Assembly: GCA_964489445.1 (NCBI GenBank)
Contig: CAZAYU010000003.1
Coordinates: forward strand, 134,715 to 198,714
Length of the DNA stretch: 64,000 bases
Source of the DNA: an uncultured Planctomycetia bacterium
Lineage (GTDB): Bacteria; Omnitrophota; Gorgyraeia; Duberdicusellales; 4484-171
Reading direction: 5' to 3'
Made by a program: the position numbers and the translations under genes. Of this stretch, positions 1 to 44,500 are shown piece after piece; the first letter of the stretch is position 1, and each line of letters starts with the position of its first letter. Below the pieces are notes generated by a model. The model worked only from the letters and a program-made list of their open reading frames with translations. It did no database searches and was not told where the DNA came from.

Positions 1-5
1 AACCA

Positions 6-6000: not shown

Positions 6001-8141
6001 CAGCTTTGGGAGGAGAGGAAAAATTGGTATTAGTTACTAGTTCTTCGTCTCTTTCACTACAAGAAGAAAAAGAATTTAAATTTTATGTAGAAAAAGGGAT
6101 TATAGTGTTAATAGAGAAAGGACAGTATGCTGTGCTTCAGAATTGGACTCCGCAATATACCCCCTATATGGCAGGATATTGGTCTAAAGTATCTGGTGAG
6201 GATAGAGCGTTAATAGAAGCAAGAGATATAGCGAAAGAATATTTTACACCGGATGAAATAATGGACGCGGTATCTATTCAGAAAACAGGAGAAAATAACG
6301 AGCAGTTGTTAAATCAAAAAAAAGCACCTAACCTCAGAGAATTAAAGGATGAGGAGTTAAAGAAGATTGGTGATAATTTAGAAATTCATGGTGGTGAATT
6401 CCTGGGCAGAGAATTAACGGTAGATGTTTTAAAAGACAATGGCCTTTTGCCAAAATATGGTGTTGAGTTTGAGGGTGTGGGTATTTATTTTTCCTTGCCT
6501 TATAAATTGGTCAATAATAGAATCGCGTTTGTGGTTTATGTTGAGTCGGGAGGAAGTTTTATTGCTCGTTCCTATTATCGTAGTAATTCACAAGGTTTAT
6601 TTCGTTATCTGCCGAAATACCGGCTTATTGGCGAAAAAGTGACCTGGTTTGATAAAGGATACAGTGAAGAAAGTCTAAACGCTCCGTTGTTCATACAACA
6701 GGCGCTGTCTGTAATTATTCAAAAAGAATTTGCGTTACAGTTGAAAGAAGATCCTTATTTTATATTTTCCGGAACAGCACATTCATTATTTGATGATGTT
6801 ACAGGAACATACTATCGGGAGACCAACGGGAAACCTTTTCCTTTAGATGGTAATTTTGGTGATGTTTACGATGAAAACAATAATCTTGCTCCGGAAGATA
6901 TTAAATTTACTGTTTCGGAAGACGAGCCTGATTTTAATGTGTTAGTAACCCAATTTACGATACCAACAGTACTTTATGGAGATGTGACTGTTGAAGCATA
7001 TCTTTCTAAAAACGGTAAATTTCAATATATGTTTTGTAAGGATAATCTTAATAGAGTATGGATAGGAGGAATAGAAGATAATAGCGAGGTAACTTCATTA
7101 GGGTTAAGGAAAAATTGGGTTTATGCCGGAAAGTTGACCACACCAGCTTTTGAATATGCCAAACAAGCCGGTATTTATGGTAATGGTAATCTAAGTAAAG
7201 GACGTTATGTCGATATGTATAAGCATTACATAAGTAAAATTCCGGTAATTCAGAAATATATTAGCAGAAAACAAAATGGCCAAACTCCTCCTTTTTATTT
7301 ACAGCAAGGAATAGAGCTGATAAATGAGAATGAACATAAAAAAGCAATCGAGGTATTCGATGTAGCGATAGAACTATATCCGAGTGTAAACAGTTTTTGG
7401 TTTCACCGGGGGCGGGCTTACCATTATTTAGGAGATTTAGTAAAAGCCGAACGCGATTATCTTAAAGCTATAGATCTTGACTCTACTGTACTTTCAATAT
7501 ATTTATCATTAATTGATCTTTATTTTCAGAAAGGTGATATTGAGAAAGCTGAGCATATTTTAGAAGATGAGTTGATAAATTTTGATAGGAATAATTACAA
7601 TGAATACCGTCAAAGATTAGATGAGTTTATTGTCCGGAAAAGATTCGGACAAGGGGTACAAGTTACTTTACAGAAAATAAGCATCAAAGAAGGCAATAGA
7701 TCAAAGATACAAGCGGGCAAGGTAATGAAAGGTGTCTTGGCCAATGGTATACAGGCTGGCAGGCCGGTAATATTGTCAGATAAAGGCAAGACTACCCCAG
7801 TAGAAAAAATAGAAGTATTAAATGCTGGCATGCTGAATGTTTATACTCGTACATCTTTATATAAAGTAAGCAGTAATGTTGCTTCTTCGGCAATCAAACC
7901 TGTCTTTTTGGTATCGGAAGAACTTAATACTTTGGATAAACAGAAAAATAAAGGCGGTATTGATCTAACACCTGAACACTTAGATTTAGAGATTAAAGGC
8001 GAAGGAATAAATTTTCAAAATGTTGATATTCCGTTTGATATTCGGAATTTTCAAGGATTTACCTTTCAGATTATAAAAATCAAGCGGATTAAAAATTCAC
8101 AGGAGATTTTTTCTTCGCCAGAACTTGCCTTGGCAAATTAA
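6..8141 (+). CDS. Giant multidomain protein, C-terminal 2711 aa (probably 5'-truncated by the window edge). It carries an HExxH motif, a tandem ~500-aa module duplication, a GT30 (Kdo-transferase, KdtA)-like C-terminal domain and C-terminal TPR repeats
   Basis: One uninterrupted ORF from the track; the frame is open at position 6 with no upstream stop visible. HETFH motif at nt 1173-1187. Paired motifs CCRRGVFPADYKMNNCG (nt ~2484) and CCRKGVFPGDYKMSNCG (nt ~3987), and YENIEKIW/YENINKIW, recur at ~1503-nt spacing. Residues ~1790-1960 (nt ~5370-5900) align to the KdtA C-terminal domain ('LLIIAPRY' vs 'LLILVPRH'; 'NTKGELSKIYGISDVSIVG' vs 'GDTMGELMLLYGIADLAFVGGS'). TPR-like helices at nt ~7300-7560. 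Confidence 0.7.
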   Translation: MYELAENYFVRTDGSYYIYDLPEHSYDLRWMNPEINDFYYRSDNEDYVVPWVNIENIAKTIVNIQDKQEKNKAISYLVETLFFYSYIMSIKYPDLNERLSDSLSEYENFLGFPYYIHKAISLGLNKIEKSNQGNKDIDSEAIYSVLTEFSKQFVTMHTQHKVFIRSELNAIIESLGRFGSLSKQQINYLLEYMDKIDQEEQANQEIFGNNNKIAQSTSSGIAKDEDVKKRLIAVINAYIESIRRVVEEATFKNNVNDEQNVWKEYLSQSSKKRMLELQDHISQVEVFLNEIKNEVDLKGIINVLNSHCIQPNLSQRKVIDLVGKYMPDLNKEKVFIIDENSLFRSIFVKNEDFGAVFVKLLTGKGINEGFIFINSRLAQSNIRLASFLIHETFHQKDNLLNHTPLRKFLSEGITTYLQKKQLRKIIVDDASDIGLSIKDELRNEFSTDWLLELMFNERDYLVDQETEELDQSKILNWRIDKILTYPNERRFAEELVRRFGDTFVQDMYLLGDTQLLEDLLGPRFKMIDSILEREDKKGLSWQKEYSRLALIALSDPEVSIDTLNCFDEVIDIVVDSLDDCYWGSLEYEKNGTYGFNIIVQTIYNDETIYDYAKKFEQNDYSRKEVEVDAKEYVNSIIKEKLSSSALNFIDLFGKGSLSVFRGSYEGYNHVTLFFKGENNEAIIKLLPSLDKYSEFEFAMPLEERLEFIKLAKEKLKGIITLQDAFEDVEIDKSVFPPGFDFNSIQGQMKENSVLVSLVKVDRKVSPLFYSESDSENSVEASDIPSFADLLADEIGFGINNEVFGWSQDTFDWFKRVVDDYFAKFQECCRRGVFPADYKMNNCGITDKNEVLIADIDLMLFGGKRKLGDVFIDTYGKDYQKIVENAFKKIKETDQGLFFIALENCLIDSLGEKKYFSEETLQELINKMRLYYRQQAGEVFSYENIEKIWAQNLIAEYLAKEQTIQDAIGVLGEEHSLEVIMDGSLNNTEKSIVNQKQLDNFGQMLFGNFKQNDLFKTIFKYVYDEAVLSVRGAAFLQFKPVANCKIIIESQLTVKTLDDGQKALEVKISSRATDENNNLDNNFKYLKIKEDSLEIVNMFSQRLEGVSLEKIPGQVTFNVPLQYLEINAAASSALVRNRENKPVNLADILGEGQIEYLGRGSKQLAFLWKREGKPDMVVKIFALMDGDSLARGIVEKVNIDEQLKNIKFSIERLKGITTLVEIAKDVEIERIRFPDDYFNFNDMQKNLEYDELVFPVVIIEEKVIPLVYSNIYDGITRISKGDVPNFSAILSKQAIEEIMNNDIASLGELEVFSRFKKIVDGYFRAFEYCCRKGVFPGDYKMSNCGVTEDDDVLIFDTDMMFFNGSRSVDDVLLEIYGENYKTRMKRQFMDIWADDISLFFSGMKAISMGNLGDQENDLGKRIEDLKEIMVNYYNQKFKKTFNYENINKIWAMGTESSSSAVGEDSQGTTEQIKQIVEGLKMKVHEPENFETAIDELEIVATDTQYQLSIRMEAVQALNDLFLEAKDSGDGFYVAVVLAGIVSDFPVQQVVSNSIINMFLNVLLGNQTISIDGNRKSQYHAAHGLSVIADRFPKLITQSWLKALKISLESLDYATQIEAGRVLKRIADYRSELISPSQKTNEFNIVAFESVKKEIADLFEDIEIISLTQKTPDNNLSIDAKETGEVINRILQKTGIKIKIRVHEVASIKAAKGLIKLLSLNRDSVVIVYAEEVSERLTREEFPGYSIEKFKVGDIRNSIIMFGDRIKPIFDYSNQCVIPYTFVKYRASNVFTKEEKDQAYKQLSIGKRQIIVFGSPNDNEEIESVVAAYNSLYGEKDTRNRPLLIIAPRYKQKPIFWQRLLSGYQHKIKFRNNSTLPFADMERENVLILNTKGELSKIYGISDVSIVGRDRNIVEPAIQSKPVFYFEGDWTNNQEVKDGLVEIGGAREFKLDSFREIMENFQQRLMMGKQGETFVKQFNEEKEKEVLRESSKFILSSVISAALGGEEKLVLVTSSSSLSLQEEKEFKFYVEKGIIVLIEKGQYAVLQNWTPQYTPYMAGYWSKVSGEDRALIEARDIAKEYFTPDEIMDAVSIQKTGENNEQLLNQKKAPNLRELKDEELKKIGDNLEIHGGEFLGRELTVDVLKDNGLLPKYGVEFEGVGIYFSLPYKLVNNRIAFVVYVESGGSFIARSYYRSNSQGLFRYLPKYRLIGEKVTWFDKGYSEESLNAPLFIQQALSVIIQKEFALQLKEDPYFIFSGTAHSLFDDVTGTYYRETNGKPFPLDGNFGDVYDENNNLAPEDIKFTVSEDEPDFNVLVTQFTIPTVLYGDVTVEAYLSKNGKFQYMFCKDNLNRVWIGGIEDNSEVTSLGLRKNWVYAGKLTTPAFEYAKQAGIYGNGNLSKGRYVDMYKHYISKIPVIQKYISRKQNGQTPPFYLQQGIELINENEHKKAIEVFDVAIELYPSVNSFWFHRGRAYHYLGDLVKAERDYLKAIDLDSTVLSIYLSLIDLYFQKGDIEKAEHILEDELINFDRNNYNEYRQRLDEFIVRKRFGQGVQVTLQKISIKEGNRSKIQAGKVMKGVLANGIQAGRPVILSDKGKTTPVEKIEVLNAGMLNVYTRTSLYKVSSNVASSAIKPVFLVSEELNTLDKQKNKGGIDLTPEHLDLEIKGEGINFQNVDIPFDIRNFQGFTFQIIKIKRIKNSQEIFSSPELALAN
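2100..4400 (+). repeat. Diverged ~1.5-kb tandem module duplication inside the first giant gene
   Basis: Motif pairs at nt 2150/3640 (LKGIITL.../LKGITTL...), 2484/3987 (CCRRGVFPADYKMNNCG/CCRKGVFPGDYKMSNCG) and 2826/4330 (YENIEKIW/YENINKIW). The period is ~1503 nt. Confidence 0.75.
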
Positions 8142-8211: not shown

Positions 8212-9267
8212 ATGTCGCATATGGATAAGGATATTTTTTGTTTAGATAATTATAATTATTCGATATCTCAAGAGTTAATCGCTCAAGAACCTTTTTATCC
8301 CCGGGATGCTTGCAGATTGTTGGCTATTAATCGAAAAGTAAAAACAATTGATGAGGGTATATTCAAGGATATTCTTAATTTTTTTAAAAAAGGAGATGTT
8401 TTAGTACTAAATGACACAAAAGTGATCAAAGCGCGGTTATGCGGAAAAAAAGAGACCGGCGGAAAAGTTGAGGTGTTATTATTAAAAGAAAAAAATCCGG
8501 GAATCTGGGAAGCATTGGTTAATCCCGGAAAACGTTTAAAGATAAATGATAAGATTGTGTTTGAAGAAAATAAAATGTTTGCAAAAATTATCGGGAAAAC
8601 TCATCAAGCAACGAGAATTTTGCAATTTACACCGGTAGATTTTAAACAAACCTTAGATCAGGAAGGAGAAGTCCCTCTTCCTCCTTATATTAAGCAGAAT
8701 GTGAAAGATTTATCCGAGTATCAAACTATTTACGCTCAGAAAGACGGATCAGTTGCCGCTCCTACTGCAGGATTGCATTTTACCAAAGAGTTGCTAAGGA
8801 AGATAAAAGAAAAAGGGGTGAGAGTTGTTTATCTTACATTGCATTGCGGTTTAGCTACTTTTCGTCCGGTAAAGTGTGCTGATATTAGAAATCATGATAT
8901 GGATTCTGAATATTTGAGCATTTCGAAAAATGTAGCAGATGAAATTAATGCTGCTAAAAATAATGGCGGAAAAGTTATCGCCGTAGGAACTACTGCAATC
9001 AGAGCTTTAGAAAGTTCGGCAGTTAAAGGTTCTGGATTAACATTTGAAGTAAAGCCTTTTTCCCGAGAAACTGATTACTATATTGTTCCCGGATATAAAT
9101 TTAAAGTAGTGGACATGGTGATCACTAATTTCCATACCCCTTGCTCTACAAATCTAATATTGATGGCGACTTTTTGCGGGCTTAAATTAATTAATAAGAG
9201 CTATCAGGTAGCCCAAGAAAGGAAATTTCGTTTTTTTAGCTTTGGGGATGCTATGATTATTATATAA
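8212..9267 (+). CDS. queA: S-adenosylmethionine:tRNA ribosyltransferase-isomerase (queuosine biosynthesis)
   Basis: N-terminal 'SQELIAQEPFYPRDACRLL' and the overall ~350-aa architecture match QueA. Confidence 0.88.
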   Translation: MSHMDKDIFCLDNYNYSISQELIAQEPFYPRDACRLLAINRKVKTIDEGIFKDILNFFKKGDVLVLNDTKVIKARLCGKKETGGKVEVLLLKEKNPGIWEALVNPGKRLKINDKIVFEENKMFAKIIGKTHQATRILQFTPVDFKQTLDQEGEVPLPPYIKQNVKDLSEYQTIYAQKDGSVAAPTAGLHFTKELLRKIKEKGVRVVYLTLHCGLATFRPVKCADIRNHDMDSEYLSISKNVADEINAAKNNGGKVIAVGTTAIRALESSAVKGSGLTFEVKPFSRETDYYIVPGYKFKVVDMVITNFHTPCSTNLILMATFCGLKLINKSYQVAQERKFRFFSFGDAMIII

Positions 9268-24934: not shown

Positions 24935-25855
24935 ATGGAAAAAAAGAAAATCAGTTTAATCATTGGGGTAGTTTTGAGCATTATGGCAATAGTATTTCTT
25001 AACCTATATTTAAGAGGTGAACGCCAAAAAAATGTTAAGGAGTTAGAAAAAGCATTTGTAGAAAAGTACAAAGATTTAGTTACTGTATTCATTGCGGATG
25101 AGGACATAGAGAAAGGTTCTATTTTAAATGCAAATGTACTGAGTACAAAAATAATTCCGAATAAATATGTTGAGCCGCAGGCGGTTACTTCTTTAGCTAA
25201 AGCCGTTGGGATGAAAGCAGCGGTTCCGATTAAAAAAGAAGAACAAATTACCCTAAGTAAATTAATAAATACAAAAACAACTATGGCTAGATCTTTAGCA
25301 ATGGCAACCCCAGTAGGAAAAAGAGCAATAACTATAAGCGTAGATAGCATAATGGGATTAGCAGGAATGATTGTCCCGGGGGATTACGTTGATGTTATTG
25401 CTTTATTGCCTACCCCTACACAGGGTGCTGATGGAACTCAGACTGTACAAATGGTTAATATTCCTATTTTCCAAAATGTGTTAGTGATTGCGGTAGGCGG
25501 GCAATTGGCAGCTAGACAGGATCAAGGGCAATCATCTTCAGGGTGGGGCTGGGGAGTCCAAAAAAGAACTAGTGAAAAAATTGCGCCATCTCCATTAATT
25601 ACATTAGCGTTAAGTTCACAAGATGCCAGCTTACTTTCTTTTGTTAATGAGCAAGGAAGATTGAGGTTAGTTATTCGCTCTCCTGCTGATGCCAAAATAG
25701 AGCAGATTTCGCCGGCAAGCTGGGAAACTCTTTTTAGCTATATAAATTCACTTATTCCTTCTCAAGATATTAAAGATAAGCATACACCGGTTAAAGCTAA
25801 AAGCGTAGAAATTTATCGGGGGGAAAATAGAGATTCAGTTTATATATCAGAGTGA
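24935..25855 (+). CDS. cpaB: Flp pilus assembly protein CpaB/RcpC
   Basis: N-terminal TM followed by a SAF-like/CpaB domain, directly upstream of the secretin. Confidence 0.75.
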   Translation: MEKKKISLIIGVVLSIMAIVFLNLYLRGERQKNVKELEKAFVEKYKDLVTVFIADEDIEKGSILNANVLSTKIIPNKYVEPQAVTSLAKAVGMKAAVPIKKEEQITLSKLINTKTTMARSLAMATPVGKRAITISVDSIMGLAGMIVPGDYVDVIALLPTPTQGADGTQTVQMVNIPIFQNVLVIAVGGQLAARQDQGQSSSGWGWGVQKRTSEKIAPSPLITLALSSQDASLLSFVNEQGRLRLVIRSPADAKIEQISPASWETLFSYINSLIPSQDIKDKHTPVKAKSVEIYRGENRDSVYISE

Positions 25856-27465
25856 TGAAAAAGATTAATATTTTTATTATTATTTTTTTGCTGATTGTTT
25901 GCTTACCGTTAATAGGCTTTTCTTTGTCTGAACGAGAAGAAATTGTTATTTACCAGGGGCAGATGGAATCTGTTTCTGTTTCTGTTCCGGAAAGGATTGT
26001 TATCGATAAGCCGGAAGTAGTTGATGTGATAAGGGTTGGTAATAACGAAATGCTTTTAAGTGGAAAACAAAAAGGGGAGGCTAAGATTAGTTGGAAGGAT
26101 AATCTTGGTGAGCATAATCTTGATGTTAAAGTTTTAGCCGAAGATGTGGAGAAAATAAAAAAGCGGATTGATGATATTCTAAAAAAAATTGGATCTTCGA
26201 ATATTAAGACGAAAACTATGGAGAATGAGGAAAAGGTTTTTCTTTTGGGTGATGTTAAAGATGAGGTGGATATAGAAAGAATTTTTTTAGCGTTGGGAGA
26301 TTTAAAGGATAAGACAGTTAACCTTGTACAAATAAAACCAGAGGACGCAATGGTTGAGATTTCTGTTCAAATTCTTGAATTTCAAAAAGGAAAAGGAAGA
26401 AACTTAGGGTTTGAACTTCCCAGCTCGATAACTTTTAGTGAAATAAATTCTTCTCTTGGCACATCAGGGCTACCTTTTGGCGGACTTTTTCCGATTAGGT
26501 CATGGGATCGAGATAAGTTCTCTGGAACTTTGAGGTTATTAATTAACGAAGGGAAGGCTAAGGTGCTTTCTCGGCCACGGCTTGCTTGTCGTAGTGGTAA
26601 AGAAGCTGAGCTTTTAGTAGGAGGAGAAATTCCGATAATGACCACCGAGGCTTCCGGTAGCAGTGAAACTCCGGGTACTAATATTGAATATAAAGAATAC
26701 GGGATTAAGTTAAAAATAAGTCCGCAAGTAGTTGACGGTGATAAGATAGATATTTTACTTTCTGTGGAGGTAACAGAGGTTGATGAAGCTGGCCTTCAAC
26801 AGCTGGGAGGCAGTGACAATATAACTGCATCAGCTTATCCGTTTACTAAAAGAAATGTTACTACGGAGCTTTCTTTAAGAAATAACGAAATTTTAGCTAT
26901 TGGTGGATTGATTAAACAGAAAACTCAAGAGGATTTAAAAAAATTTCCTTGGTTAGCTGATATCCCGATTTTAGGTGCCTTCTTTAGGAGTAAAAATGTT
27001 ACTCAAGGCGGGGGAGCTGACGAGAAGGGCGATACTGAATTATTCATTACTCTTTCTCCCAAGATAATTTATCGGGATGGTCAAGATAACCAAAAAAAAA
27101 TAAAAGAATCGTTTCGGGAAGAAACATTAGAGAAAAAAATCAGTCGTTACCACGATAGATCTCATATCCCAGATGAACTACAAAGTTATGTGTTAGCAGT
27201 TAAAAAGATGATATTAAGGGATATTTCTTATCCAGAAGTAGCTTCAAGTAGTGGTTGGGAAGGGAGCTTGCTGATTTCTTTAAAAATTTCTTCCGATGGA
27301 AAACTTAAACAGGCGAAAATTGCTGAGTCTTCGGGAAATAAGATATTTGACCAAGATGCTTTAAATGTGGCTAAAGCAGTAAAATACCCCCCCTTTTATT
27401 ACTATAAGATAAGTCTAGAAGAGATAAACTTAGAAATACCTATAGTGTACAAGCCTACGAAATAA
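25852..27465 (+). CDS. cpaC: Tad-type secretin (CpaC/RcpA) fused to a C-terminal TonB_C-like domain
   Basis: Secretin domain 'VLSRPRLACRSGKEAELLVGGEIPI...LAIGGLIKQKTQEDLKKFPWLADIPILGAFF'. C-terminal ~90 aa 'DISYPEVASSSGWEGSLLISLKISSDGKL...SSGNKIFDQDALNVAKAVKYPP' resembles the TonB C-terminal domain. Confidence 0.82.
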   Translation: MMKKINIFIIIFLLIVCLPLIGFSLSEREEIVIYQGQMESVSVSVPERIVIDKPEVVDVIRVGNNEMLLSGKQKGEAKISWKDNLGEHNLDVKVLAEDVEKIKKRIDDILKKIGSSNIKTKTMENEEKVFLLGDVKDEVDIERIFLALGDLKDKTVNLVQIKPEDAMVEISVQILEFQKGKGRNLGFELPSSITFSEINSSLGTSGLPFGGLFPIRSWDRDKFSGTLRLLINEGKAKVLSRPRLACRSGKEAELLVGGEIPIMTTEASGSSETPGTNIEYKEYGIKLKISPQVVDGDKIDILLSVEVTEVDEAGLQQLGGSDNITASAYPFTKRNVTTELSLRNNEILAIGGLIKQKTQEDLKKFPWLADIPILGAFFRSKNVTQGGGADEKGDTELFITLSPKIIYRDGQDNQKKIKESFREETLEKKISRYHDRSHIPDELQSYVLAVKKMILRDISYPEVASSSGWEGSLLISLKISSDGKLKQAKIAESSGNKIFDQDALNVAKAVKYPPFYYYKISLEEINLEIPIVYKPTK

Positions 27466-27467
27466 AC

Positions 27468-29639
27468 ATGACAAAAACAATTGCAATTTATAGCACAAAA
27501 GGCGGTGTAGGTAAGACTACGGTGTCTGTAAATACTGCTTTAAGTCTTTCTTTGAAAAAAAAGAAAGTACTGCTTTTAGATTTAGACTTGGGAGCCCCTT
27601 TGGATATTGCAAAAATGTGTGGCGTTAAGCCTAAAAAGGGAATGGTTGATCTTTTATCAGTTTGGGATAAGGTGAAAAATGATGAAGAAGCCTTAAGGGT
27701 AACTTTTTTTACTCAAATTAATCCTTATTTTCATTTTTTACCGGCGGCAATATCTTCAAGAGCAGTAGCTCATTTAAATGCTGAGTCTATAAGGGGCATA
27801 TTAAAAGCTCTTAAATCTTTCAGTTATGAGTACATCATCATTGATGGAGGATTGAATCTTACTGATATTTTAATCGAGATATTTGATTCTGCTAATGTAA
27901 TTTCTTTAGTGCTTACTCCAGATATTCTTTCATTGTATCAAACAGAATGGATATTAGATACTCTTCAAAGTTTAGGTTTTCCTTTAAGTATGATAAAAGC
28001 AGTGATTAACCGTTCAGAAAGTAAAGGTAGCGTAAGTGCTTTTGAGATTAAACTTCTTTTGCCTATAGAGATTATTTGTACTATTCCTTCTGATGGAAAA
28101 ACTGTGGGCATGGCTTTAAATAGAGGAATTCCTGTAGTTTTGGATTCACCACATAGTCGAATTAGTTTGGCAATAGGTTCTTTAAGTGACGTAATCATCA
28201 AGAGAGAGGACATGTATATATCCCATAAAGATCTGTCTAGCTTAAGGATAAAAGATAGTGCTATTAAAGAAGACACTAAAACTGATCTATGGAGCCGGTT
28301 GGGATTAATGGAACCGTTAAGAGAGGTAAAAATACAAAGAGAAGAGGATATTATTATTGATTTAAAAAAGAAATTACATTCTCAGCTAATAAAAGAAATG
28401 AATCTAAAACGAATGGCGGTTGGCATGATGAATGCAAATGTCGAACAGGCAAGAAAATTAAGGCAAGATGCGGAAAAGATTTTAAGTAATATTTTAGCAA
28501 AAGAAACTGGCGGATTTATTTCTTCTTATGAGGTTAGGCAGAAATTAATTAATGAGATTGTTGATGAAAGCCTGGGTTTGGGTCCTCTAGAGGAATTAAT
28601 AGCTGATCCTCAAATTACAGAAATAATGGTTAATAATAAAAATAGAATTTATGTAGAAAAAAAGGGAAAGATTTATTCTACTAGTAAAAGATTTACTTCT
28701 AATACCCAAGTGCGTACAGTTATTGAAAGAATTTTGGCACCTTTAGGAAAAAGAATTGATGAATCTTCTCCTTATGTTGACGCTCGTCTTCCCGATGGCT
28801 CAAGAGTAAATGCAATAATTCCACCCTTAAGTTTAACAGGGCCGACCTTAACTATAAGGAAATTTGCCAAACAAAGGCTCGGAATAAATGAGTTAGTGAC
28901 AGATTACAATAGCTTAAGTCAAGAAATGGCTACTTTTTTAAAAGCGTGTGTGACTTCACGAAAAAATATTTTGGTAACCGGAGGAACGGGGTCTGGGAAA
29001 ACTACTTTTCTTAATATTCTATCCGAGTTTATTCCTGATCGTGAAAGAATTATTACTGTTGAGGATTCAGCTGAGCTGAAACTTCACCATCATCATTGGA
29101 TAAGGCTAGAGTCAAAACCACCAAATATTGAAGGTAAAGGGCAAATTACAATAAGAGATTTATTTAAAAACACTTTACGCATGCGGCCGGATAGAATTGT
29201 GGTTGGTGAATGCCGGGGTGGGGAAGTTTTAGATATGCTCCAGGCTATGAATACTGGCCATGATGGAAGCATGTCTACGATTCATGCTAATTCTACTCAT
29301 GATGTATTAATGAGGCTGGATAGCATGATTTTAATGAGTGGTATAGAGCTTCCGATACGCGCGATTAGGGAGATGATTTCTTCGGCTTTAGATTTAATTG
29401 TCCATACAGCTCGCTTAAGTGATGGAACAAGAAAGGTTATCCAGATTACTGAAGTTGGCGAAATGGTTGGTGAAACGAACGTGGATCTCAAAGATATATT
29501 TGCTTTTAGACAAAAAGGTATAGATAATGATGGTGTTGTAAACGGTTCTTTTTATCCCACCGAGTATATTCCTTCTTTTTATGAGGAAATCTGTGTGAAA
29601 GGCATTGATTTGCCTAAAGAAACATTTCAGAAAAAATAA
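27468..29639 (+). CDS. Fusion of CpaE/TadZ (ParA/MinD-like ATPase) and CpaF/TadA (secretion ATPase)
   Basis: N-terminal 'IAIYSTKGGVGKTTVS' deviant Walker A. C-terminal half has Walker A 'GGTGSGKTT', 'VGECRGGEVLDMLQAMNTGHDGSMSTIHANS' (VirB11/CpaF family). Confidence 0.85.
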   Translation: MTKTIAIYSTKGGVGKTTVSVNTALSLSLKKKKVLLLDLDLGAPLDIAKMCGVKPKKGMVDLLSVWDKVKNDEEALRVTFFTQINPYFHFLPAAISSRAVAHLNAESIRGILKALKSFSYEYIIIDGGLNLTDILIEIFDSANVISLVLTPDILSLYQTEWILDTLQSLGFPLSMIKAVINRSESKGSVSAFEIKLLLPIEIICTIPSDGKTVGMALNRGIPVVLDSPHSRISLAIGSLSDVIIKREDMYISHKDLSSLRIKDSAIKEDTKTDLWSRLGLMEPLREVKIQREEDIIIDLKKKLHSQLIKEMNLKRMAVGMMNANVEQARKLRQDAEKILSNILAKETGGFISSYEVRQKLINEIVDESLGLGPLEELIADPQITEIMVNNKNRIYVEKKGKIYSTSKRFTSNTQVRTVIERILAPLGKRIDESSPYVDARLPDGSRVNAIIPPLSLTGPTLTIRKFAKQRLGINELVTDYNSLSQEMATFLKACVTSRKNILVTGGTGSGKTTFLNILSEFIPDRERIITVEDSAELKLHHHHWIRLESKPPNIEGKGQITIRDLFKNTLRMRPDRIVVGECRGGEVLDMLQAMNTGHDGSMSTIHANSTHDVLMRLDSMILMSGIELPIRAIREMISSALDLIVHTARLSDGTRKVIQITEVGEMVGETNVDLKDIFAFRQKGIDNDGVVNGSFYPTEYIPSFYEEICVKGIDLPKETFQKK

Positions 29640-29814: not shown

Positions 29815-29905
29815 GCGTCACCTAAGGGAGGCGACGAAAAAGGCAATTTGCTGGAGTTTTGTAAAAAGCGAAGGCGAAGCGCAAAGCCACGGGTTCCAAA
29901 AAGTT
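29815..29905 (+). ncRNA. c-di-GMP-I (GEMM)-like riboswitch/leader, copy A (tentative)
   Basis: Conserved core 'GCGCAAAGCCACGGgtTCCAAAAA' is shared with copy B and resembles the Vc2 riboswitch junction 'GACGCAAAGCCUCCGG'. Upstream 'taaggg' plus hairpin. Followed by an intrinsic terminator. Confidence 0.4.
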
Positions 29906-29973
29906 AAGAGTTCAAAAGTCATAGTTTATATTTTGGACAAAATGTAAATTAGAGTTTGAACTAAATAGGAAAT

Positions 29974-30013
29974 AGCCGGGCTGCCGTCAGAAAAAGGCAG
30001 TCCGGTTTTTTTA
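29974..30013 (+). terminator. Intrinsic terminator / attenuator hairpin directly upstream of the first flp gene
   Basis: 'CCGGGCTGCC gtcagaaaaa GGCAGTCCGG' is a 10-bp stem (one G.U) followed by TTTTTTT. The ATG of the pilin gene lies 7 nt downstream. Confidence 0.6.
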
Positions 30014-39065: not shown

Positions 39066-39183
39066 TGGGGACACGACACTTAACTATTGTTTATTTTTTT
39101 TGGCCCAGGTTTGTCACGGCGCACTAATGGGGACACGACACTTAACTATTGTTTATTTTTTTTGGCCCAGGTTTGTCACGGCG
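39060..39183. repeat. Perfect 62-bp tandem duplication (x2) at the left end of the IS200-like element
   Basis: 'cactaatggggacacgacacttaactattgtttattttttttggcccaggtttgtcacggcg' at 39060-39121 repeats exactly at 39122-39183. Confidence 0.85.
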
Positions 39184-39885
39184 GAGCTTTCTTCCGGTTA
39201 TTTCTTCAAGATTAGAGATAAAGGCATTATTGCCCAATGGTCTACCGTTTCGAAAATGTTTTCTAAAATTGTGTATGTCATTATTTTTATCTTTAGATAA
39301 AAGATACAAAGACCAGTCGTTTATTCCTGAAAGCAAAAAATTATCGTCTAATAAATGATTATGCTTTTTGTAAACATGAGAGTAAGCGCTTGACCATTTA
39401 TAATTTTCTGCTTTTTTAACCATTGTTGCCCTTACTGGATTACGCTCAATGTAGCGCATTGCTGCGAATAAGTATTCTTCAGATAGAGGGTAAGATTTGA
39501 ATCTTCCTTCCCATAAATAGCCGCGCCAATTTTGGCGGGAATTTATTGTGTAAGTGTATTTTCGGTGTGCATCGCCTAGCCCTTTGGATAAACTATTCTT
39601 TGTTTTCGGAACAACAATAAGATGAACGTGATTATCCATAAGACAATATCCCCAAATGGATATTCCTGCCGGTTTTGCGTAATCGTTTAGACAATTTAGG
39701 TATAACTGCTTGTCTTCAGGTGTAAAAAATACTTGTTGTCGGCGATTGCCTCGCTGAATAATATGGTGCGGGCATTTTGGTATAACAATCCGTGCTATTC
39801 TTGGCATAATATATGTTAACAGGAGTAAGTAAAGCAATATAGCCTTCTTAATAAATAGACGAAAGAAAGATAGTTTTTCTTTCAA
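39142..39885 (-). CDS. tnpA: IS200-like Y1 (HUH) transposase, REP-associated tyrosine transposase type (probable start at Met27, nt 39807)
   Basis: 'MPRIARIVIPKCPHHIIQRGNRRQQVFF...YCLMDNHVHLIVVP...KYTYTIN' carries the HxH motif and the catalytic Tyr region typical of RAYT/IS200 TnpA. Confidence 0.8.
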   Translation of the reverse strand: MKEKLSFFRLFIKKAILLYLLLLTYIMPRIARIVIPKCPHHIIQRGNRRQQVFFTPEDKQLYLNCLNDYAKPAGISIWGYCLMDNHVHLIVVPKTKNSLSKGLGDAHRKYTYTINSRQNWRGYLWEGRFKSYPLSEEYLFAAMRYIERNPVRATMVKKAENYKWSSAYSHVYKKHNHLLDDNFLLSGINDWSLYLLSKDKNNDIHNFRKHFRNGRPLGNNAFISNLEEITGRKLRRDKPGPKKINNS

Positions 39886-39958
39886 AATATTAAATTTTTT
39901 TGGATTTATCTATACAGATGAAGTAATTTAAGGAATGATTTGCCCAAATAATGAACAA

Positions 39959-40228
39959 TTAAGTGTCGTGTCCCCCAATTGCAAGGATGATTGCGGTTGT
40001 GCCTTCTTTGCGATAAATGCTTTTATATCCGGAGGTAATTGTAAATTCCCAGCAGTCTTTGGTGCCTTCAATCTTCCTGCGCCTTAAAAGCGGAGAAGAC
40101 TCATTTTTTAAAAGCATATCGATACACCAATAAAACCAATGAAAATTCTTCTGTATTTGAGCCGGAAGTTCTCGTTTGTTCTTGATTTTATTTCTTATCG
40201 GTTCGGTGATAATGATTCGGTTGATCAT
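39959..40228 (-). CDS. RelE/ParE-family type II toxin (tentative)
   Basis: C-terminal 'WEFTITSGYKSIYRKEGTTAIILAIGGHD' resembles the RelE/ParE 'YRIIYRI..d..vvIlrIgHRkd' core. Overlaps the upstream antitoxin-like gene by 4 nt. Confidence 0.5.
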   Translation of the reverse strand: MINRIIITEPIRNKIKNKRELPAQIQKNFHWFYWCIDMLLKNESSPLLRRRKIEGTKDCWEFTITSGYKSIYRKEGTTAIILAIGGHDT

Positions 40229-40503
40229 CCTTCAATATCCTTTCGTAGTTCTTCGGTTGAATTGTATTCAGAATATCTGTGGTCGGCTATTGCTTTTTCT
40301 GAATTGCTAATTGCTTTTTGCCATTTTGAGCTAAAAAACTGTGTTTGTTGGGTATTTACCGCTGATACCGGGGTAATAATTAGTTGATTGTTCTTTACTT
40401 CCAAGCGTAGTAAATCACCAGCGTTGATCTTTAATGCCTTTCTCATTGAAGAAGGAAGGGTAATCTGACCGTTTCTGACCACTTTTCTTATTGTTTCGAA
40501 CAT
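40225..40503 (-). CDS. AbrB/MazE/SpoVT-type antitoxin (tentative)
   Basis: N-terminal 'IRKVVRNGQITLPSSMRKALKINAGDLLRLEVKNNQLIITPV' is a swapped-hairpin AbrB-like DNA-binding domain. Confidence 0.55.
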   Translation of the reverse strand: MFETIRKVVRNGQITLPSSMRKALKINAGDLLRLEVKNNQLIITPVSAVNTQQTQFFSSKWQKAISNSEKAIADHRYSEYNSTEELRKDIEG

Positions 40504-40631
40504 TTGTGCTCCTTTTTTCAGCTGATTACGGCGATTGTGAAAAGATTGCAGCGATTACCTCATTAATCTTCTTACTTGGCAGCTTTTGTTTCCAAAATTA
40601 ATCAATAATCCTACGTTGCAGCCAGTTATTT

Positions 40632-40922
40632 TTAAGTAAGATAAAACCTGCGCTTCAAATATTTTGGCATGTAACCGGTCAAGGCTTTAACTTCCACAAT
40701 TATACTGTTTTCAATTATTAAATCTAATCTTAGAGAACCAACTTTTTGGTTAGCATACTTTATTTTATATTGTTTTTCTGTATTGTAGTTTAATCCTGCT
40801 GAAGTTAAGGCAATTTTTAAAGCATTGTGATAGATCTTTTCACTAAATCCGGGACCTAATTCAGAATGAACTTTATGCGCGCAGCCAATTATTTTCTCAG
40901 TAAGGGGGTCTCTTTTTTCCAT
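40632..40922 (-). CDS. GxxExxY family protein (PD-(D/E)xK-like)
   Basis: 'IIGCAHKVHSELGPGFSEKIYHNAL...IVEVKAL' matches the GxxExxY family signature. Confidence 0.65.
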   Translation of the reverse strand: MEKRDPLTEKIIGCAHKVHSELGPGFSEKIYHNALKIALTSAGLNYNTEKQYKIKYANQKVGSLRLDLIIENSIIVEVKALTGYMPKYLKRRFYLT

Positions 40923-40986: not shown

Positions 40987-41019
40987 ATATGTAATTTACA
41001 TATTATGTAAATTACATAT
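40987..41019. promoter_or_regulatory. Two adjacent 17-bp palindromes (ATATGTAAtTTACATAT / TATGTAAaTTACATATA), a possible operator
   Basis: Perfect dyad symmetry seen directly in the sequence, ~65-100 nt upstream of the GxxExxY gene start (minus strand). Confidence 0.3.
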
Positions 41020-41205: not shown

Positions 41206-41236
41206 TTGTTTTTTTCTTCATATATATGTTATATTT
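41206..41236 (+). promoter_or_regulatory. Putative promoter, copy B (-35 TTGTTT, -10 TGTTATATT)
   Basis: Near-identical to the copy A promoter at 29781-29810. Confidence 0.5.
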
Positions 41237-41244
41237 ATATTGTA

Positions 41245-41306
41245 AAGTTCGATAAGGGCAATCCTGACTAAGTCAGGTGCGCAAAGCCACGGATCCCAAA
41301 AATAGT
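41245..41306 (+). ncRNA. c-di-GMP-I (GEMM)-like riboswitch aptamer, copy B (tentative)
   Basis: 'AAGGGCAAt-CCTGAC-taa-GTCAGG-tGCGCAAAGCCACGG' parallels the Vc2 aptamer 'CAGGGCAAA-CCAUUC-gaaa-GAGUGG-gACGCAAAGCCUCCGG'. The conserved box is shared with copy A. Confidence 0.5.
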
Positions 41307-41363
41307 GGATAACTGATTTATCATAGTCTGAGGCTACGATAAACCGATATTGCTCAAGGGAAA

Positions 41364-41414
41364 GCCGGGCTGCCGAAACTTTGAAAATAGAGTTTTGACA
41401 GTCCGGTTTTTTTT
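41364..41414 (+). terminator. Intrinsic terminator / expression-platform hairpin upstream of the giant gene
   Basis: 'CCGGGCTG...CAGTCCGG' stem with an internal hairpin, followed by TTTTTTTT. Same stem sequence as the copy A terminator. Confidence 0.55.
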
Positions 41415-41530
41415 AAATAGCCGACAGGACACATTATGAGAAATAAAAAGATGAAAATGAATATATTGGGGAATTTGTGTTATTTATATAGTATATATAC
41501 ATTTAATTTTTTTTTAACTATACAAGATAA

Positions 41531-44500
41531 ATGAGCATAGAACAGAAACATACTGGCGTATTTAATGAAGCTCAAAAGGAAAGGGCAAAGCCTTGGATTA
41601 GAACAATTGCGTTGTTGGTTGTCTTTGCTTTTTTGCATCAGAATATTGTTTTAGGGTTTACCGGAAATAATTTTTTCTTTCAATCTCAAATAATGCCTCA
41701 AGGGCCCAAGGCAGTATTAGATATTTCTTCTTCTTTCTTGCAGGAAGAAGCTCCGGAAGCAGTAAGGAATATCCTTAATGCAGTATCTTCAAATCCTGGA
41801 ATCAGCAAGATTAAATTTCCTTCCGGCAAAATCTTAGATGTTAACAATAAGCTAAATTTAACGCCGCAGGGCATAGATCAAATTTATACGTTACTTAAAG
41901 AGAAACCCTGTGGAACAGAAGCGCTTTATGATTACTTGAGAAATTACGGATTAAGCAATTCGCAGACTGAAGTCGCCAGCATTCTTTTTTCTATTGATGT
42001 TCTAGAAAATTCCGAAAATTTAAGAATAGATCCGCAATCTCTACAAAATTCATTATATAGTCTTGTTCATGGTGCAGAATTTTTTGGGTACCAGCTAACA
42101 CCGATAGAGCTCAAAAAACCCTTTCCGGTGTTTATTCTGCAGGAGTTTACTCCGTTTATCGCCCATTTCAAGATTGGACATTATGTAGTAGTTAGAAAGA
42201 TCGAAGATGGAAAAGTTTTTTGTATTGATAACGGAATGCCGGCGGAATATAGTTTAAAGAAATTTTTACAGGATTTTAGCGGATATGCCGCAGTAGCTAA
42301 TTTTAAACCTTTTAGTTTTGTGAAAAAGGTTTCTTTAGATAAGGCTAAAGTGATTAAAGGTTCGCGTCAAGGAACTAATTTAAGAAATTGGTCGCAGTTA
42401 GCGAATTTAGATAAAATCAGACAGCAGGTTGATGATTTTCGCAGTGATGCTCAAAGTAAAATCTTAAAAAGTATGGCTATCCAAGCGGGGATTTCTGTTG
42501 TTGGCAGTTTTGCTTCCGGATTTATTAAAGGGGCTGCCGGAACAGTTCCTAAAGGGGCAACAGTTGCAACTGATTTAACTACCGGAGGTAACTATCTTGT
42601 AGAGGGAAGTGTTGGAGCGAGAACATTTACAGAAGTAGGTAGTTTTTCACACATGGTAAACTCTGGTTGGACTAATATGGCTAGTTCATTTTCTAGTGTT
42701 GGTAGCGGGATGGTGATGGGTTTGTCCGGATCAGCCTTATGTACCGGAATTTCCGGAATCGGTCGAGCATATGACTGGGATAGAGGCACAACGAGGATAG
42801 TTTCTGCTCTTTCGATGGGCGCACTATACGGTGGGTTACAAGGGTTTTCTGGCGGCGGACAATATGGAATGTTTGGTGCGACTGTGGATGCTGGTTGGAC
42901 CGGAGCCTTAAAAGGAGCTGCAGCCGGAGTAGGATATAATTTAGTAAGAGTTCCGGTGGGTGATTATTTAGCCGAAAGATTTGGTGAAAATTGGGATACA
43001 GTAGGTTATGCGATTGGCGGTATTGCCGGAGATTTAGCGGCTAGCAGCATAATGTCCGGATTAAACGGTGATTTTACTTTAGGCGGTAAAATAGAAGTGG
43101 ACCCAAATAAAGGTTATGGTTTGGGCGATCATTTGTATGGTCAGATAGGCAGTTGGACAGAAGATTTAGTGACTGCGGGAATGCAGGGCTTGGCTAATGA
43201 ACTCGATTTAGGGAATACTTGGGAGGCAATGTTTTCATTTTCCGGCGGCTTTAGCCGAGGGTTAGTGGATAGCCAATTGAATAAGCAAACTAGCTGGCAT
43301 GATGGCTTAATGTCTGGATTAGAAAAGGGTGTCTATTCAATGGGGGTAAGTTACTTTGAAAATTGGATGGAAGATAATATTGGCGGGGCGTTAGGAGATT
43401 GGGTTAAAGACTCAACCATGAATCGGAATATGCTGGCTAATTTAGCTACCGGGACTTTAGCCGGCGGGTTTTATGGTTTAGCCAGCGACAATGATTGGAA
43501 TATTCCGGGGATGACTCAAGAAAACAAGAATTTAGGCTGGTGGAACATTGCGACAATTCCGTTAGATAGTGTTGTAGAAGCCAATCAGGCGATGTTTAGT
43601 TTTGGTAAAAGCCGGTTGGATAGTGGTCAGATAAGTTTTTCTAAATATCTTCAGAATCTTACTGACGTGTTTATTCCCAAATATGACTGGCAAATTAGCC
43701 GGGAAGTGCGCAGCCAACTTAAAAACTACGATTATGATAAAAAGTTAGAACTAGCCAATAATTTCAATCAGAAGGGCTCTCTTTATGAGGGTAAAATATT
43801 TAATTCCGACGGCTCAATTAATAATAAAGCCTTATCTGATGCGTATGGTAATTTTATGGTTGATCAGTCTTTGTATCCGGACATGATGGAGAATTTCCTT
43901 CAGGCGATGGACAGTATGGGCGCTCAGTATCACCACTGGAATGCAGTAGCTAATTTACAGAAGTTTGCCAGTCCTATTGTTCAACAGTCTATAAGCAGCC
44001 TGACTAAGTACAATGCGATGGATGGTAATTTAGGGATAGTAACAAATCAAGCAATAGAAGATCTAAAGGGAAGAGATGTTTTTCAGAGTAGGACTACAGT
44101 CAATGGGCATCAGGGATTTAAATATGAAGAAAGGGAGTACGATGAATACGGTGAATACGAGATGTATATTGAATCTAAGCAAACGAGCAATCCTTACAAA
44201 GAAGGTTCTAACTTAGCAGGAATGCTAGAACGATATAAGGATTTAGATTCCGGGACAGAATCTAAAGACATCCGCTATGAAGATGGATTTGTTTTCTATC
44301 GTTTGGGAGAAGCTTATATTGACGATAAAACTATGGACTTTGTATTCATAAACACAAATCATGAACAAAGAAATTTTAATTTCAATAGTATCGAAAGTTT
44401 CATCGGGCCCGTAGATAAATTGTTAAAAGCAGGGCACTCGGCAAATAGTATTACATCTTTAAAGAGTTTCGGGATTGATTACGTAGCGATTTCTATTTTC

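Follow-up and report, generated by a model that had tools for sequence, protein, structure and literature searches.

The subject of this analysis is the leader of a giant open reading frame (ORF) in a 64,000-nucleotide stretch (the window) of contig CAZAYU010000003.1, which comes from an uncultured bacterium of the phylum Omnitrophota (assembly GCA_964489445.1). The leader, here called copy B, is very probably a class I cyclic di-GMP (c-di-GMP) riboswitch that controls transcription elongation into the giant gene, and it most probably acts as an ON switch. A preliminary description of the window had read it as a riboswitch-like leader; that reading is supported by the evidence below, and the class can now be named as c-di-GMP-I. 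The coordinates of the features are collected in Table 1.

A class I c-di-GMP aptamer upstream of the giant gene

The whole 64-kb window was compared with all 4227 Rfam families. A single match exceeded its gathering score, that to RF01051 (c-di-GMP-I) at 41247-41377 on the forward strand, with 47.2 bits against a gathering score of 35 (E = 4.2e-6 at this scope) and with the full model covered (positions 1-87 of 87). The unconstrained minimum-energy fold of the nascent RNA is the three-helix aptamer, at -38.5 kcal/mol for an RNA ending at 41378 and -41.8 kcal/mol for one ending at 41385. P1 has 9 bp and one bulged A, and P1a combines the pairs of G41258-C41259 with G41281-C41282 and a CCUGAC/GUCAGG stem capped by a UAA triloop. 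These two helices and P1b are fully paired, and the junction and ligand-contact nucleotides are intact. The equivalents of the three contact nucleotides are canonical: G20 is G41257, A47 is A41283 and C92 is C41373, where the numbering of Vc2 was transferred to the Rfam consensus by our own count from the Vc2 sequence. G20 makes the Hoogsteen contact to G-alpha, A47 the intercalating or backbone contact, and C92 the Watson-Crick pair to G-beta (PMC5888326, PMC6140456). Judged by its sequence, copy B appears to be a genuine, canonical-type member of c-di-GMP class I (GEMM-I), a known riboswitch class, and would be expected to bind c-di-GMP. An aptamer-like region had been proposed for 41245-41306; there is indeed a real aptamer here, but that interval holds only its 5′ half, and the structure runs on to ∼41383 and overlaps the terminator.

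Further support comes from folding statistics and from related loci (numbered with the prefix L). The leader from 41243 to 41420 folds at -57.6 kcal/mol, compared with -38.2 ± 3.7 kcal/mol for dinucleotide shuffles (z = -5.25). Fourteen leaders served to build a covariance model, to which 47 matches were realigned. Across these 47 relatives, 95.9% of the alignment cells are paired, against 81% for shuffles and 27-42% for slid partners, figures to be read with the caveat that the alignment was fitted to the model and that, for L001-L028, the search pattern had fixed part of P1b. Changes on both sides are seen in 111 cells, and 9 pairs carry compensatory changes, which occur in all 6 pairs of P1a.

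Within the same clan, copy B could instead sense another cyclic dinucleotide (3′3′-cyclic GMP-AMP (cGAMP), the ligand of GEMM-Ib) or belong to the c-di-GMP-I-GGC variant (RF03167), whose ligand may differ. RF03167 is in fact the best clan member in E-value mode, with 48.8 bits on copy B, and several orthologues exceed its gathering score; the value for copy B falls short of that score, which is 59. The Rfam consensuses of RF01051 and RF03167 differ in the core at GACGC-A/G-AAGCC. The RF03167 consensus, GACGCGAAGCC, has a G 3′ of the P1a-closing GC, whereas copy B reads GCGCAAAGCC with an A at 41283, and all parsed relatives also have the A. The GGC variant was rejected on the score and on this diagnostic A; it probably scores well only through P1 being part of its model. 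The cGAMP riboswitch was rejected because cGAMP-sensing relatives have an A replacing G20 (PMC6140456) and copy B has G at 41257. A ligand other than c-di-GMP, or membership of the variant, is thus extremely improbable.

Aptamer and terminator are competing folds

The 3′ part of the leader is an intrinsic terminator, as had been proposed for 41364-41414: a 9-bp lower stem and a 10-bp upper stem with an AAAA loop are followed by a U8 tract, and the hairpin folds at -24.6 kcal/mol. The two stems are separated by a 1x1 internal loop of C41373 and A41398, so that the C92 equivalent lies within the terminator. The small additional hairpin noted earlier in the terminator loop is real (41374-41397), but it provides no extra expression platform. 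It forms the upper part of the terminator stem and, as such, competes with P1. On its 5′ side (41364-41383), the terminator re-uses the 3′ strand of P1b, followed by the junction and then by P1's 3′ strand. Aptamer and terminator are therefore mutually exclusive, and an ON switch of the same kind as Bc2 from Bacillus thuringiensis is predicted.

For the full leader, the terminator fold has an energy of -58.2 kcal/mol and the enforced aptamer one of -35.6 kcal/mol, which in this folding model makes termination the default state. When folding was followed stepwise, the upper terminator stem had displaced P1 by position 41400, and the lower stem had invaded P1b by position 41412. A terminator overlapping the aptamer was found in 15 of 15 related leaders, with energies of -16 to -32 kcal/mol and 5-8 U, and in all 15 the 5′ arm is the aptamer's GCCGGG(C/U)U(G/A)C. 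Compensatory changes in the terminator stem are seen at arm positions 7 (C-G to U-A), 9 (G-C to A-U) and 11, and the upper stem is also present in several orthologues (L030, L031, L034), where it appears as a frequent variant of a single long terminator hairpin.

Many class I c-di-GMP riboswitches are OFF switches, Cd1 of C. difficile being an example. With a terminator present, copy B might likewise be a c-di-GMP-I riboswitch in which the ligand favours termination, or a translational switch in which it occludes the ribosome site. An OFF design requires a separate anti-terminator that is sequestered by the bound aptamer, whereas here the 5′ arm of the terminator is the 3′ half of the aptamer. 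Against a translational switch, no Shine-Dalgarno (SD) sequence or start codon lies within the aptamer's reach, the nearest ATG being 22 nt beyond the U-tract. Either arrangement is very improbable for copy B.

Promoter-like site and proposed mechanism

The promoter claimed for 41206-41236 is borne out in that a -35-like TTGTTT and an extended -10 element, TGtTATATT, are present and the block is shared with copy A (a second riboswitch element in the window, see below) and with orthologues. The spacer is 18 nt long and its last three bases are the TGt of the extended -10. The segment that comes after the block is structured and richer in GC. Over 33 nt, the block shares 85% identity with its counterpart before copy A. 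The riboswitches of L031-L039 are preceded by a conserved TTGACA-N17-TGtTATATT, and TGtTAAATT or TGgTATATT stands upstream of those of L025, L029 and L012. From the position of the -10 hexamer, transcription would start at ∼41243 (41242-41244). The 172 nt from there to the end of the U-tract at 41414 agree with the terminated transcript of ∼170 nt that the preliminary description had expected.

A consensus scanner applied to the window reported neither the promoter nor the terminator of copy B. The promoter was missed because its -35 hexamer matches the consensus at only 3 of 6 positions, and the terminator because the hairpin template allows only a loop of 3-8 nt and cannot take a 1x1 internal loop. 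The misses are a limit of the scanner and no evidence that the features are absent.

We propose the following mechanism. Transcription would begin at ∼41243 at the extended -10 promoter, and the first ∼140 nt would fold into the P1/P1a/P1b aptamer, with G41257, A41283 and C41373 forming the pocket in which c-di-GMP would bind. Without c-di-GMP, the upper terminator stem would first strip away the 3′ strand of P1, the lower stem would then invade P1b, and RNA polymerase would release a ∼172-nt transcript at the 19-bp terminator and its U8. If c-di-GMP is bound in the ∼30-nt window before the 3′ arm of the terminator emerges, P1 and P1b would be locked, the terminator blocked, and the polymerase could continue into the giant gene. 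On the read-through mRNA, a 32-codon upstream ORF (uORF) would probably deliver ribosomes to the giant gene by termination-reinitiation. Copy A, which has the same design, would control Flp pilin and Tad genes, such that high c-di-GMP would turn on pilus subunits and the giant surface protein together.

The riboswitch accompanies relatives of the giant gene

In the giant protein, a membrane anchor at the N-terminus is followed by a Peptidase_C39-like domain (aa 174-256), and there is a Gly-rich region; a Pfam search of the ORF found no other domain. The protein matches the published C39-type giant proteins of Omnitrophota (10.1101/2023.11.21.568195, 10.64898/2026.06.07.730766). A search with its N-terminal 340 aa (41531-42550) against 5.8 billion proteins returned no homologue, not even a self-match. 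QueA from the same window (8212-9267) is 100% identical to a database protein, and many of its next-best named matches, at ∼51-60% identity, are annotated as Candidatus Omnitrophota, which places the window in this phylum. Giant ORFs thus seem to be missing from that protein collection, and relatives were therefore found by scans of DNA.

Two scans were made. In the first, 185,579 species genomes were scanned for the pattern of a class I core with a long P1b insert, which gave 28 loci, 7 of them labelled Omnitrophota. The ORFs downstream of two of these riboswitches (L012, L025) have N-termini that resemble that of the giant ORF in the window, with 42% identity over 460 aa in L025. In the second, 241 million metagenome records were scanned for an N-terminal peptide motif only, taken from the alignment of three N-termini and hence independent of the RNA. 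This gave 11 loci, and in 11 of 11 a c-di-GMP-I-clan riboswitch above the gathering score lies upstream on the same strand. The terminator design of copy B is present in all 11 metagenome loci and in L012 and L025. The same riboswitch stands before every retrievable relative of this Omnitrophota giant gene. In L031, L034, L035, L036 and L038, it is directly preceded by TadB-TadC.

Copy A of the window (aptamer 29833-29989) precedes four Flp-type pilin ORFs and Tad genes. Its terminator overlaps the aptamer as in copy B (GCCGGGCUGCC...GGCAGUCCGG, then U7). The label ‘copy B’ is apt as far as class membership goes, but the two have only short matches outside the conserved core, and copy B is a paralogue of the same class, not a duplicate in sequence. 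Flp pilins follow the riboswitch in L002 and L007, as with copy A. The order in L002, namely TadZ/A (70% identical), riboswitch (RF01051, 37.5 bits) and Flp pilins, is the orthologous arrangement of copy A.

The words riboswitch and c-di-GMP are absent from the two publications on the giant proteins cited above, and a literature search found no paper joining ‘c-di-GMP riboswitch’ with ‘Omnitroph’. The coupling of riboswitch and giant gene, and the uORF abutting an SD-less start that is described in the next section, are apparently unreported in the literature searched.

Two side observations concern the related loci. In L033, L035, L036, L037, L038 and L039, a gene for a Gly-rich protein of 366-466 aa (e.g. 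1871-2971 of L035) lies between the riboswitch and the giant-type gene. The protein has a signal peptide and no Pfam domain, and it aligns to aa 366-668 of the giant protein of the window; by this alignment, it may be a split or fused version of the giant's N-terminal module. Separately, in the genome scan, the non-Omnitrophota loci L004, L005, L019, L026 and L028 (Chloroflexota, Thermotogae and others) have 2-3 c-di-GMP-I matches each, spaced by a few hundred to a few thousand bases.

The leader downstream of the terminator

A 116-nt spacer separates the terminator from the giant gene. The first ATG after the U-tract opens the uORF, which is preceded by AGGA 7 nt upstream of its ATG and whose TGA stop overlaps the ATG of the giant gene as ATGA. 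The giant-gene ATG at 41531 has no SD sequence, and the orthologues likewise lack one. In six loci (L025, L029, L030, L012, L031, L034), the first ATG past the U-tract also opens a uORF, of 19-60 codons, whose end falls -18 to +10 nt from the SD-less gene ATG; around the uORF start, L025, L030 and the L033-type loci share a conserved ATTATGA. A comparable uORF, read by eye, lies near the gene ATG in L032 and ends in ATGA, and by our reading an 11-codon uORF in L035 ends in an ATGA that overlaps the second Met of the Gly-rich gene. Such a uORF arises in 2-8% of the dinucleotide shuffles of each locus leader. We infer that the uORF is likely a termination-reinitiation device.

A G-rich motif, UGGGGGAAAGGGGG (or UUUGGGGAGAAA...GAGGGG), is conserved inside the uORFs of the read-through leaders. 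It lies 47-142 nt upstream of the ATG in the leaders of L025, L029, L030, L012, L031, L034 and L032, and in the window it is reduced to UUGGGGAAU at ∼41466-41474. The motif could act in SD-like pausing, as a standby site, or as a pause or loading site for processive antitermination.

In L032, an inserted GIY-YIG nuclease gene (109 aa; 610-939) separates the riboswitch terminator from the giant-type gene, and this locus keeps the G-rich motif and a short ATGA-ending uORF just upstream of the giant-type gene. Small ORFs of 26-34 aa that overlap the aptamer on either strand were judged to be due to chance.

Atypical features of the aptamer and points against the proposed switch

A number of observations weigh against copy B being a functional ON switch of the giant gene, and they concern the aptamer, the energetics of the leader, the relatives and the translation of the uORF. 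One of them is the expansion of P1b. The RF01051 alignment places a 62-nt insertion in apical P1b, where the Rfam consensus has ∼17 nt. The expansion folds as an imperfect coaxial extension with the apical hairpin UUUAUC-A-UAGUC UGA GGCUA-C-GAUAAA; folded alone, its z is only -1.5. The P1b inserts of orthologues range from absent (in 91-nt aptamers) to ∼100 nt with unrelated sequences, and the orthologous aptamers are 91-181 nt long. A search of the 60-nt insertion for conserved structure or a second aptamer found none, and no other Rfam family matched at E <= 1. The expansion is lineage-specific and non-conserved, and so without demonstrated role. The P1a loop of copy B is a UAA triloop and not a GNRA tetraloop, and the receptor-like CCUAAG in the P1b of relatives is CCCAAAAA in copy B; going by these sequences, the tetraloop-receptor contact is probably absent. 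The differences in loop, receptor and insert may lower the affinity of copy B.

The terminator is ∼22 kcal/mol more stable than the aptamer, so the switch must act kinetically and its dynamic range is unpredictable. The -35 hexamer is weak and the transcription start is read from the -10 element. Six further assemblies of this population carry a 100% identical leader, so that there is no within-species variation. The 13 relative loci and the window amount to about 8 distinct lineages, fewer than the loci, because several leaders are near-identical (L033/L036/L038/L039; L031/L034; L025/L029). Several orthologous uORF starts lack an SD sequence, and the G-rich motif is in different frames in L031 and L034; translation of the uORF is therefore not secure, and either the uORF peptide or the G-rich RNA motif may be the conserved entity.

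As an alternative, the aptamer of copy B could be decaying and unresponsive to ligand, with the leader serving as a constitutive attenuator that is read through by means of, for example, a processive antiterminator. The lack of a GNRA tetraloop, the altered receptor region, the large non-conserved insertion, a terminator far more stable than the aptamer, and a conserved G-rich motif downstream without explanation would all fit. This is nevertheless improbable in view of the intact ligand-contact and junction nucleotides and the full pairing of P1, P1a and P1b. Docking of a GNRA tetraloop into its receptor is a feature of a subtype with many members and no requirement of the family. A GNRA P1a loop occurs in 31 of the 37 parsed relatives; the other 6, including L030, still exceed the gathering score, and L030, which has the UAA loop of copy B, scores 49 bits. 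Rfam members without GNRA are also in the set. Finally, ∼8 lineages have kept the aptamer in front of this gene family, which speaks for selection. The oddities of copy B leave the binding pocket untouched, and a c-di-GMP-responsive ON switch remains the preferred reading.

As a side observation, ACACAGAT and its reverse complement ATCTGTGT recur in orthologous leaders, within the P1b insertion and in the 5′ untranslated region (UTR). In the window, they are not enriched (3 matches against 0.9 expected, and zero in the leader).

Genomic neighbourhood

The Tad locus of the window comprises RcpC, a secretin-TonB_C fusion, a TadZ-TadA fusion, Flp-type pilins, TadG-like genes and two T2SSF genes. 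The two fusions are unusual: in the first, a secretin carries a C-terminal TonB_C, and in the second a TadZ-like ParA/MinD ATPase is joined to the TadA (T2SSE) ATPase. The interval from TadC to the riboswitch holds, on the reverse strand, genes for an IS200-type Y1 transposase, a MazE-like antitoxin and its 89-aa partner, and a PDDEXK_3 protein. This region looks like a secondarily inserted mobile or toxin-antitoxin cassette because TadC directly precedes the riboswitch in the five loci listed above. A 33-nt palindrome sits between the PDDEXK_3 gene and the riboswitch promoter; its 16-nt arms (ATATGTAATTTACATA / TATGTAAATTACATAT) are 100% complementary with 1 nt between them, and the palindrome may serve as an operator or mark one end of a mobile element. 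At the left edge, the C-terminal 2712 aa of another very long ORF enter the window, and the only Pfam matches in it are TPR repeats near aa 2430-2510.

Table 1. Coordinates of the riboswitch leader, of its surroundings in the window, and of selected sites in related loci
Feature	Position	Strand	Basis or remark
Promoter-like site	41206-41235	+	-35-like TTGTTT, 18-nt spacer, extended -10; read from sequence
-35-like TTGTTT	41206-41211	+	
Spacer	41212-41229	+	
Extended -10	41227-41235	+	
-10 hexamer TATATT	41230-41235	+	
c-di-GMP-I aptamer	41243-41383	+	Rfam RF01051, unconstrained fold and covariation
P1	41243-41251 with 41374-41383	+	
P1a	41258-41282	+	
P1b	41285-41297 with 41358-41371	+	
P1b hairpin expansion	41298-41357	+	∼60 nt; Rfam 62-nt insertion, fold
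Intrinsic terminator	41364-41414	+	Fold; same design in 15/15 related leaders
Lower terminator stem	41364-41372 with 41399-41407	+	9 bp
Upper terminator stem	41374-41383 with 41388-41397	+	10 bp
U-tract	41407-41414	+	U8
uORF	41436-41534	+	32 codons, MRNKKMKMNILGNLCYLYSIYTFNFFLTIQDK; first ATG after U-tract; predicted
Regulated giant ORF	41531-64000, runs off window	+	>7490 aa
Copy A c-di-GMP-I element	29833-30012	+	RF03167 32.6 bits, E = 9e-4, below gathering score
Secretin-TonB_C and TadZ-TadA fusions	25852-27465, 27468-29639		
Putative mobile/toxin-antitoxin cassette	39142-40922	-	
Palindrome	40987-41019		
Left-edge long ORF	3-8138	+	
Orthologous uORFs	L025 2890-3027; L029 2858-2980; L030 2814-2996		
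Orthologous uORFs	L012 2975-3034; L031 2904-2996; L034 2908-2985		
ACACAGAT/ATCTGTGT sites	L012 2959-2997; L029 2712-2729, 2934-2941; L025 2969-3009		
ACACAGAT/ATCTGTGT sites	L030 2676-2683; L032 458-501; L002 5111-5138		

Significance and comparison with known systems

It is only recently that the giant genes of Omnitrophota, tens of thousands of codons long, were described. On balance, and with modest confidence, we lean towards the view that an ON riboswitch and a uORF abutting an SD-less start form a dedicated, conserved control module of the C39-type giants, placed right after TadB-TadC and paired with a switch of the pilin operon. If so, c-di-GMP would be the signal by which these bacteria, ultrasmall and putatively predatory, commit themselves to the transcription of a gene at least 22 kb long along with their Tad pili, and the module would offer the first regulatory access to the timing of giant-protein production. 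The testable hypothesis is that production of the pilus and of the giant protein is licensed jointly by c-di-GMP, classically the signal for attachment, and such joint control would fit the proposed role of the giant proteins in adhesion to prey. The conserved riboswitch context makes the regulation of giant genes experimentally approachable. In practical terms, the riboswitch combined with the N-terminal peptide motif can serve as a marker for the starts of giant genes in fragmented metagenomes, and the ratio of metatranscriptome reads before and after the terminator would indicate the c-di-GMP state of an uncultured organism.

The published giant genes of Omnitrophota have an N-terminal C39 domain near the signal sequence and, upstream, a type II secretion system (T2SS)-like/Tad locus that is conserved (10.1101/2023.11.21.568195, West-Roberts et al. 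2023; 10.64898/2026.06.07.730766). The gene in the window shares with them the N-terminal anchor, the C39-like domain, a largely unannotatable body and the upstream Tad/T2SS-like locus; the riboswitch is not part of their description (10.1101/2023.11.21.568195; 10.64898/2026.06.07.730766).

For riboswitch biology, copy B is an ordinary, if expanded, member of class I, and its context is the unexpected part. It has the three-helix architecture, the junction sequences and the G20, A47 and C92 equivalents of Vc2 of Vibrio cholerae and of RF01051, and its location in the 5′ UTR of a surface or attachment gene is a typical placement for GEMM (PMC7266159). It differs in having a UAA triloop, no tetraloop-receptor sequence and a ∼60-nt expansion of P1b, in its host phylum, Omnitrophota, and in a regulated gene of more than 7490 aa.

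Another of the closest known systems is Bc2 RNA of Bacillus thuringiensis BMB171, a c-di-GMP-I riboswitch that precedes the collagen adhesion protein gene cap and whose action as an ON switch was demonstrated by experiment; there, binding of c-di-GMP forms an anti-terminator in place of the intrinsic terminator (PMC4933901). In both cases, a class I aptamer and an intrinsic terminator lie in the 5′ UTR of a gene for a large surface protein, and the ON behaviour of copy B is suggested by analogy. Bc2 governs its adhesin gene by way of repression and de-repression. The Bc2 terminator directly adjoins the cap ORF (PMC4933901), whereas copy B is followed by the spacer with its uORF. The host of Bc2 is a Gram-positive Firmicute and that of copy B a diderm member of Omnitrophota; Bc2 is known by experiment and copy B from its sequence.

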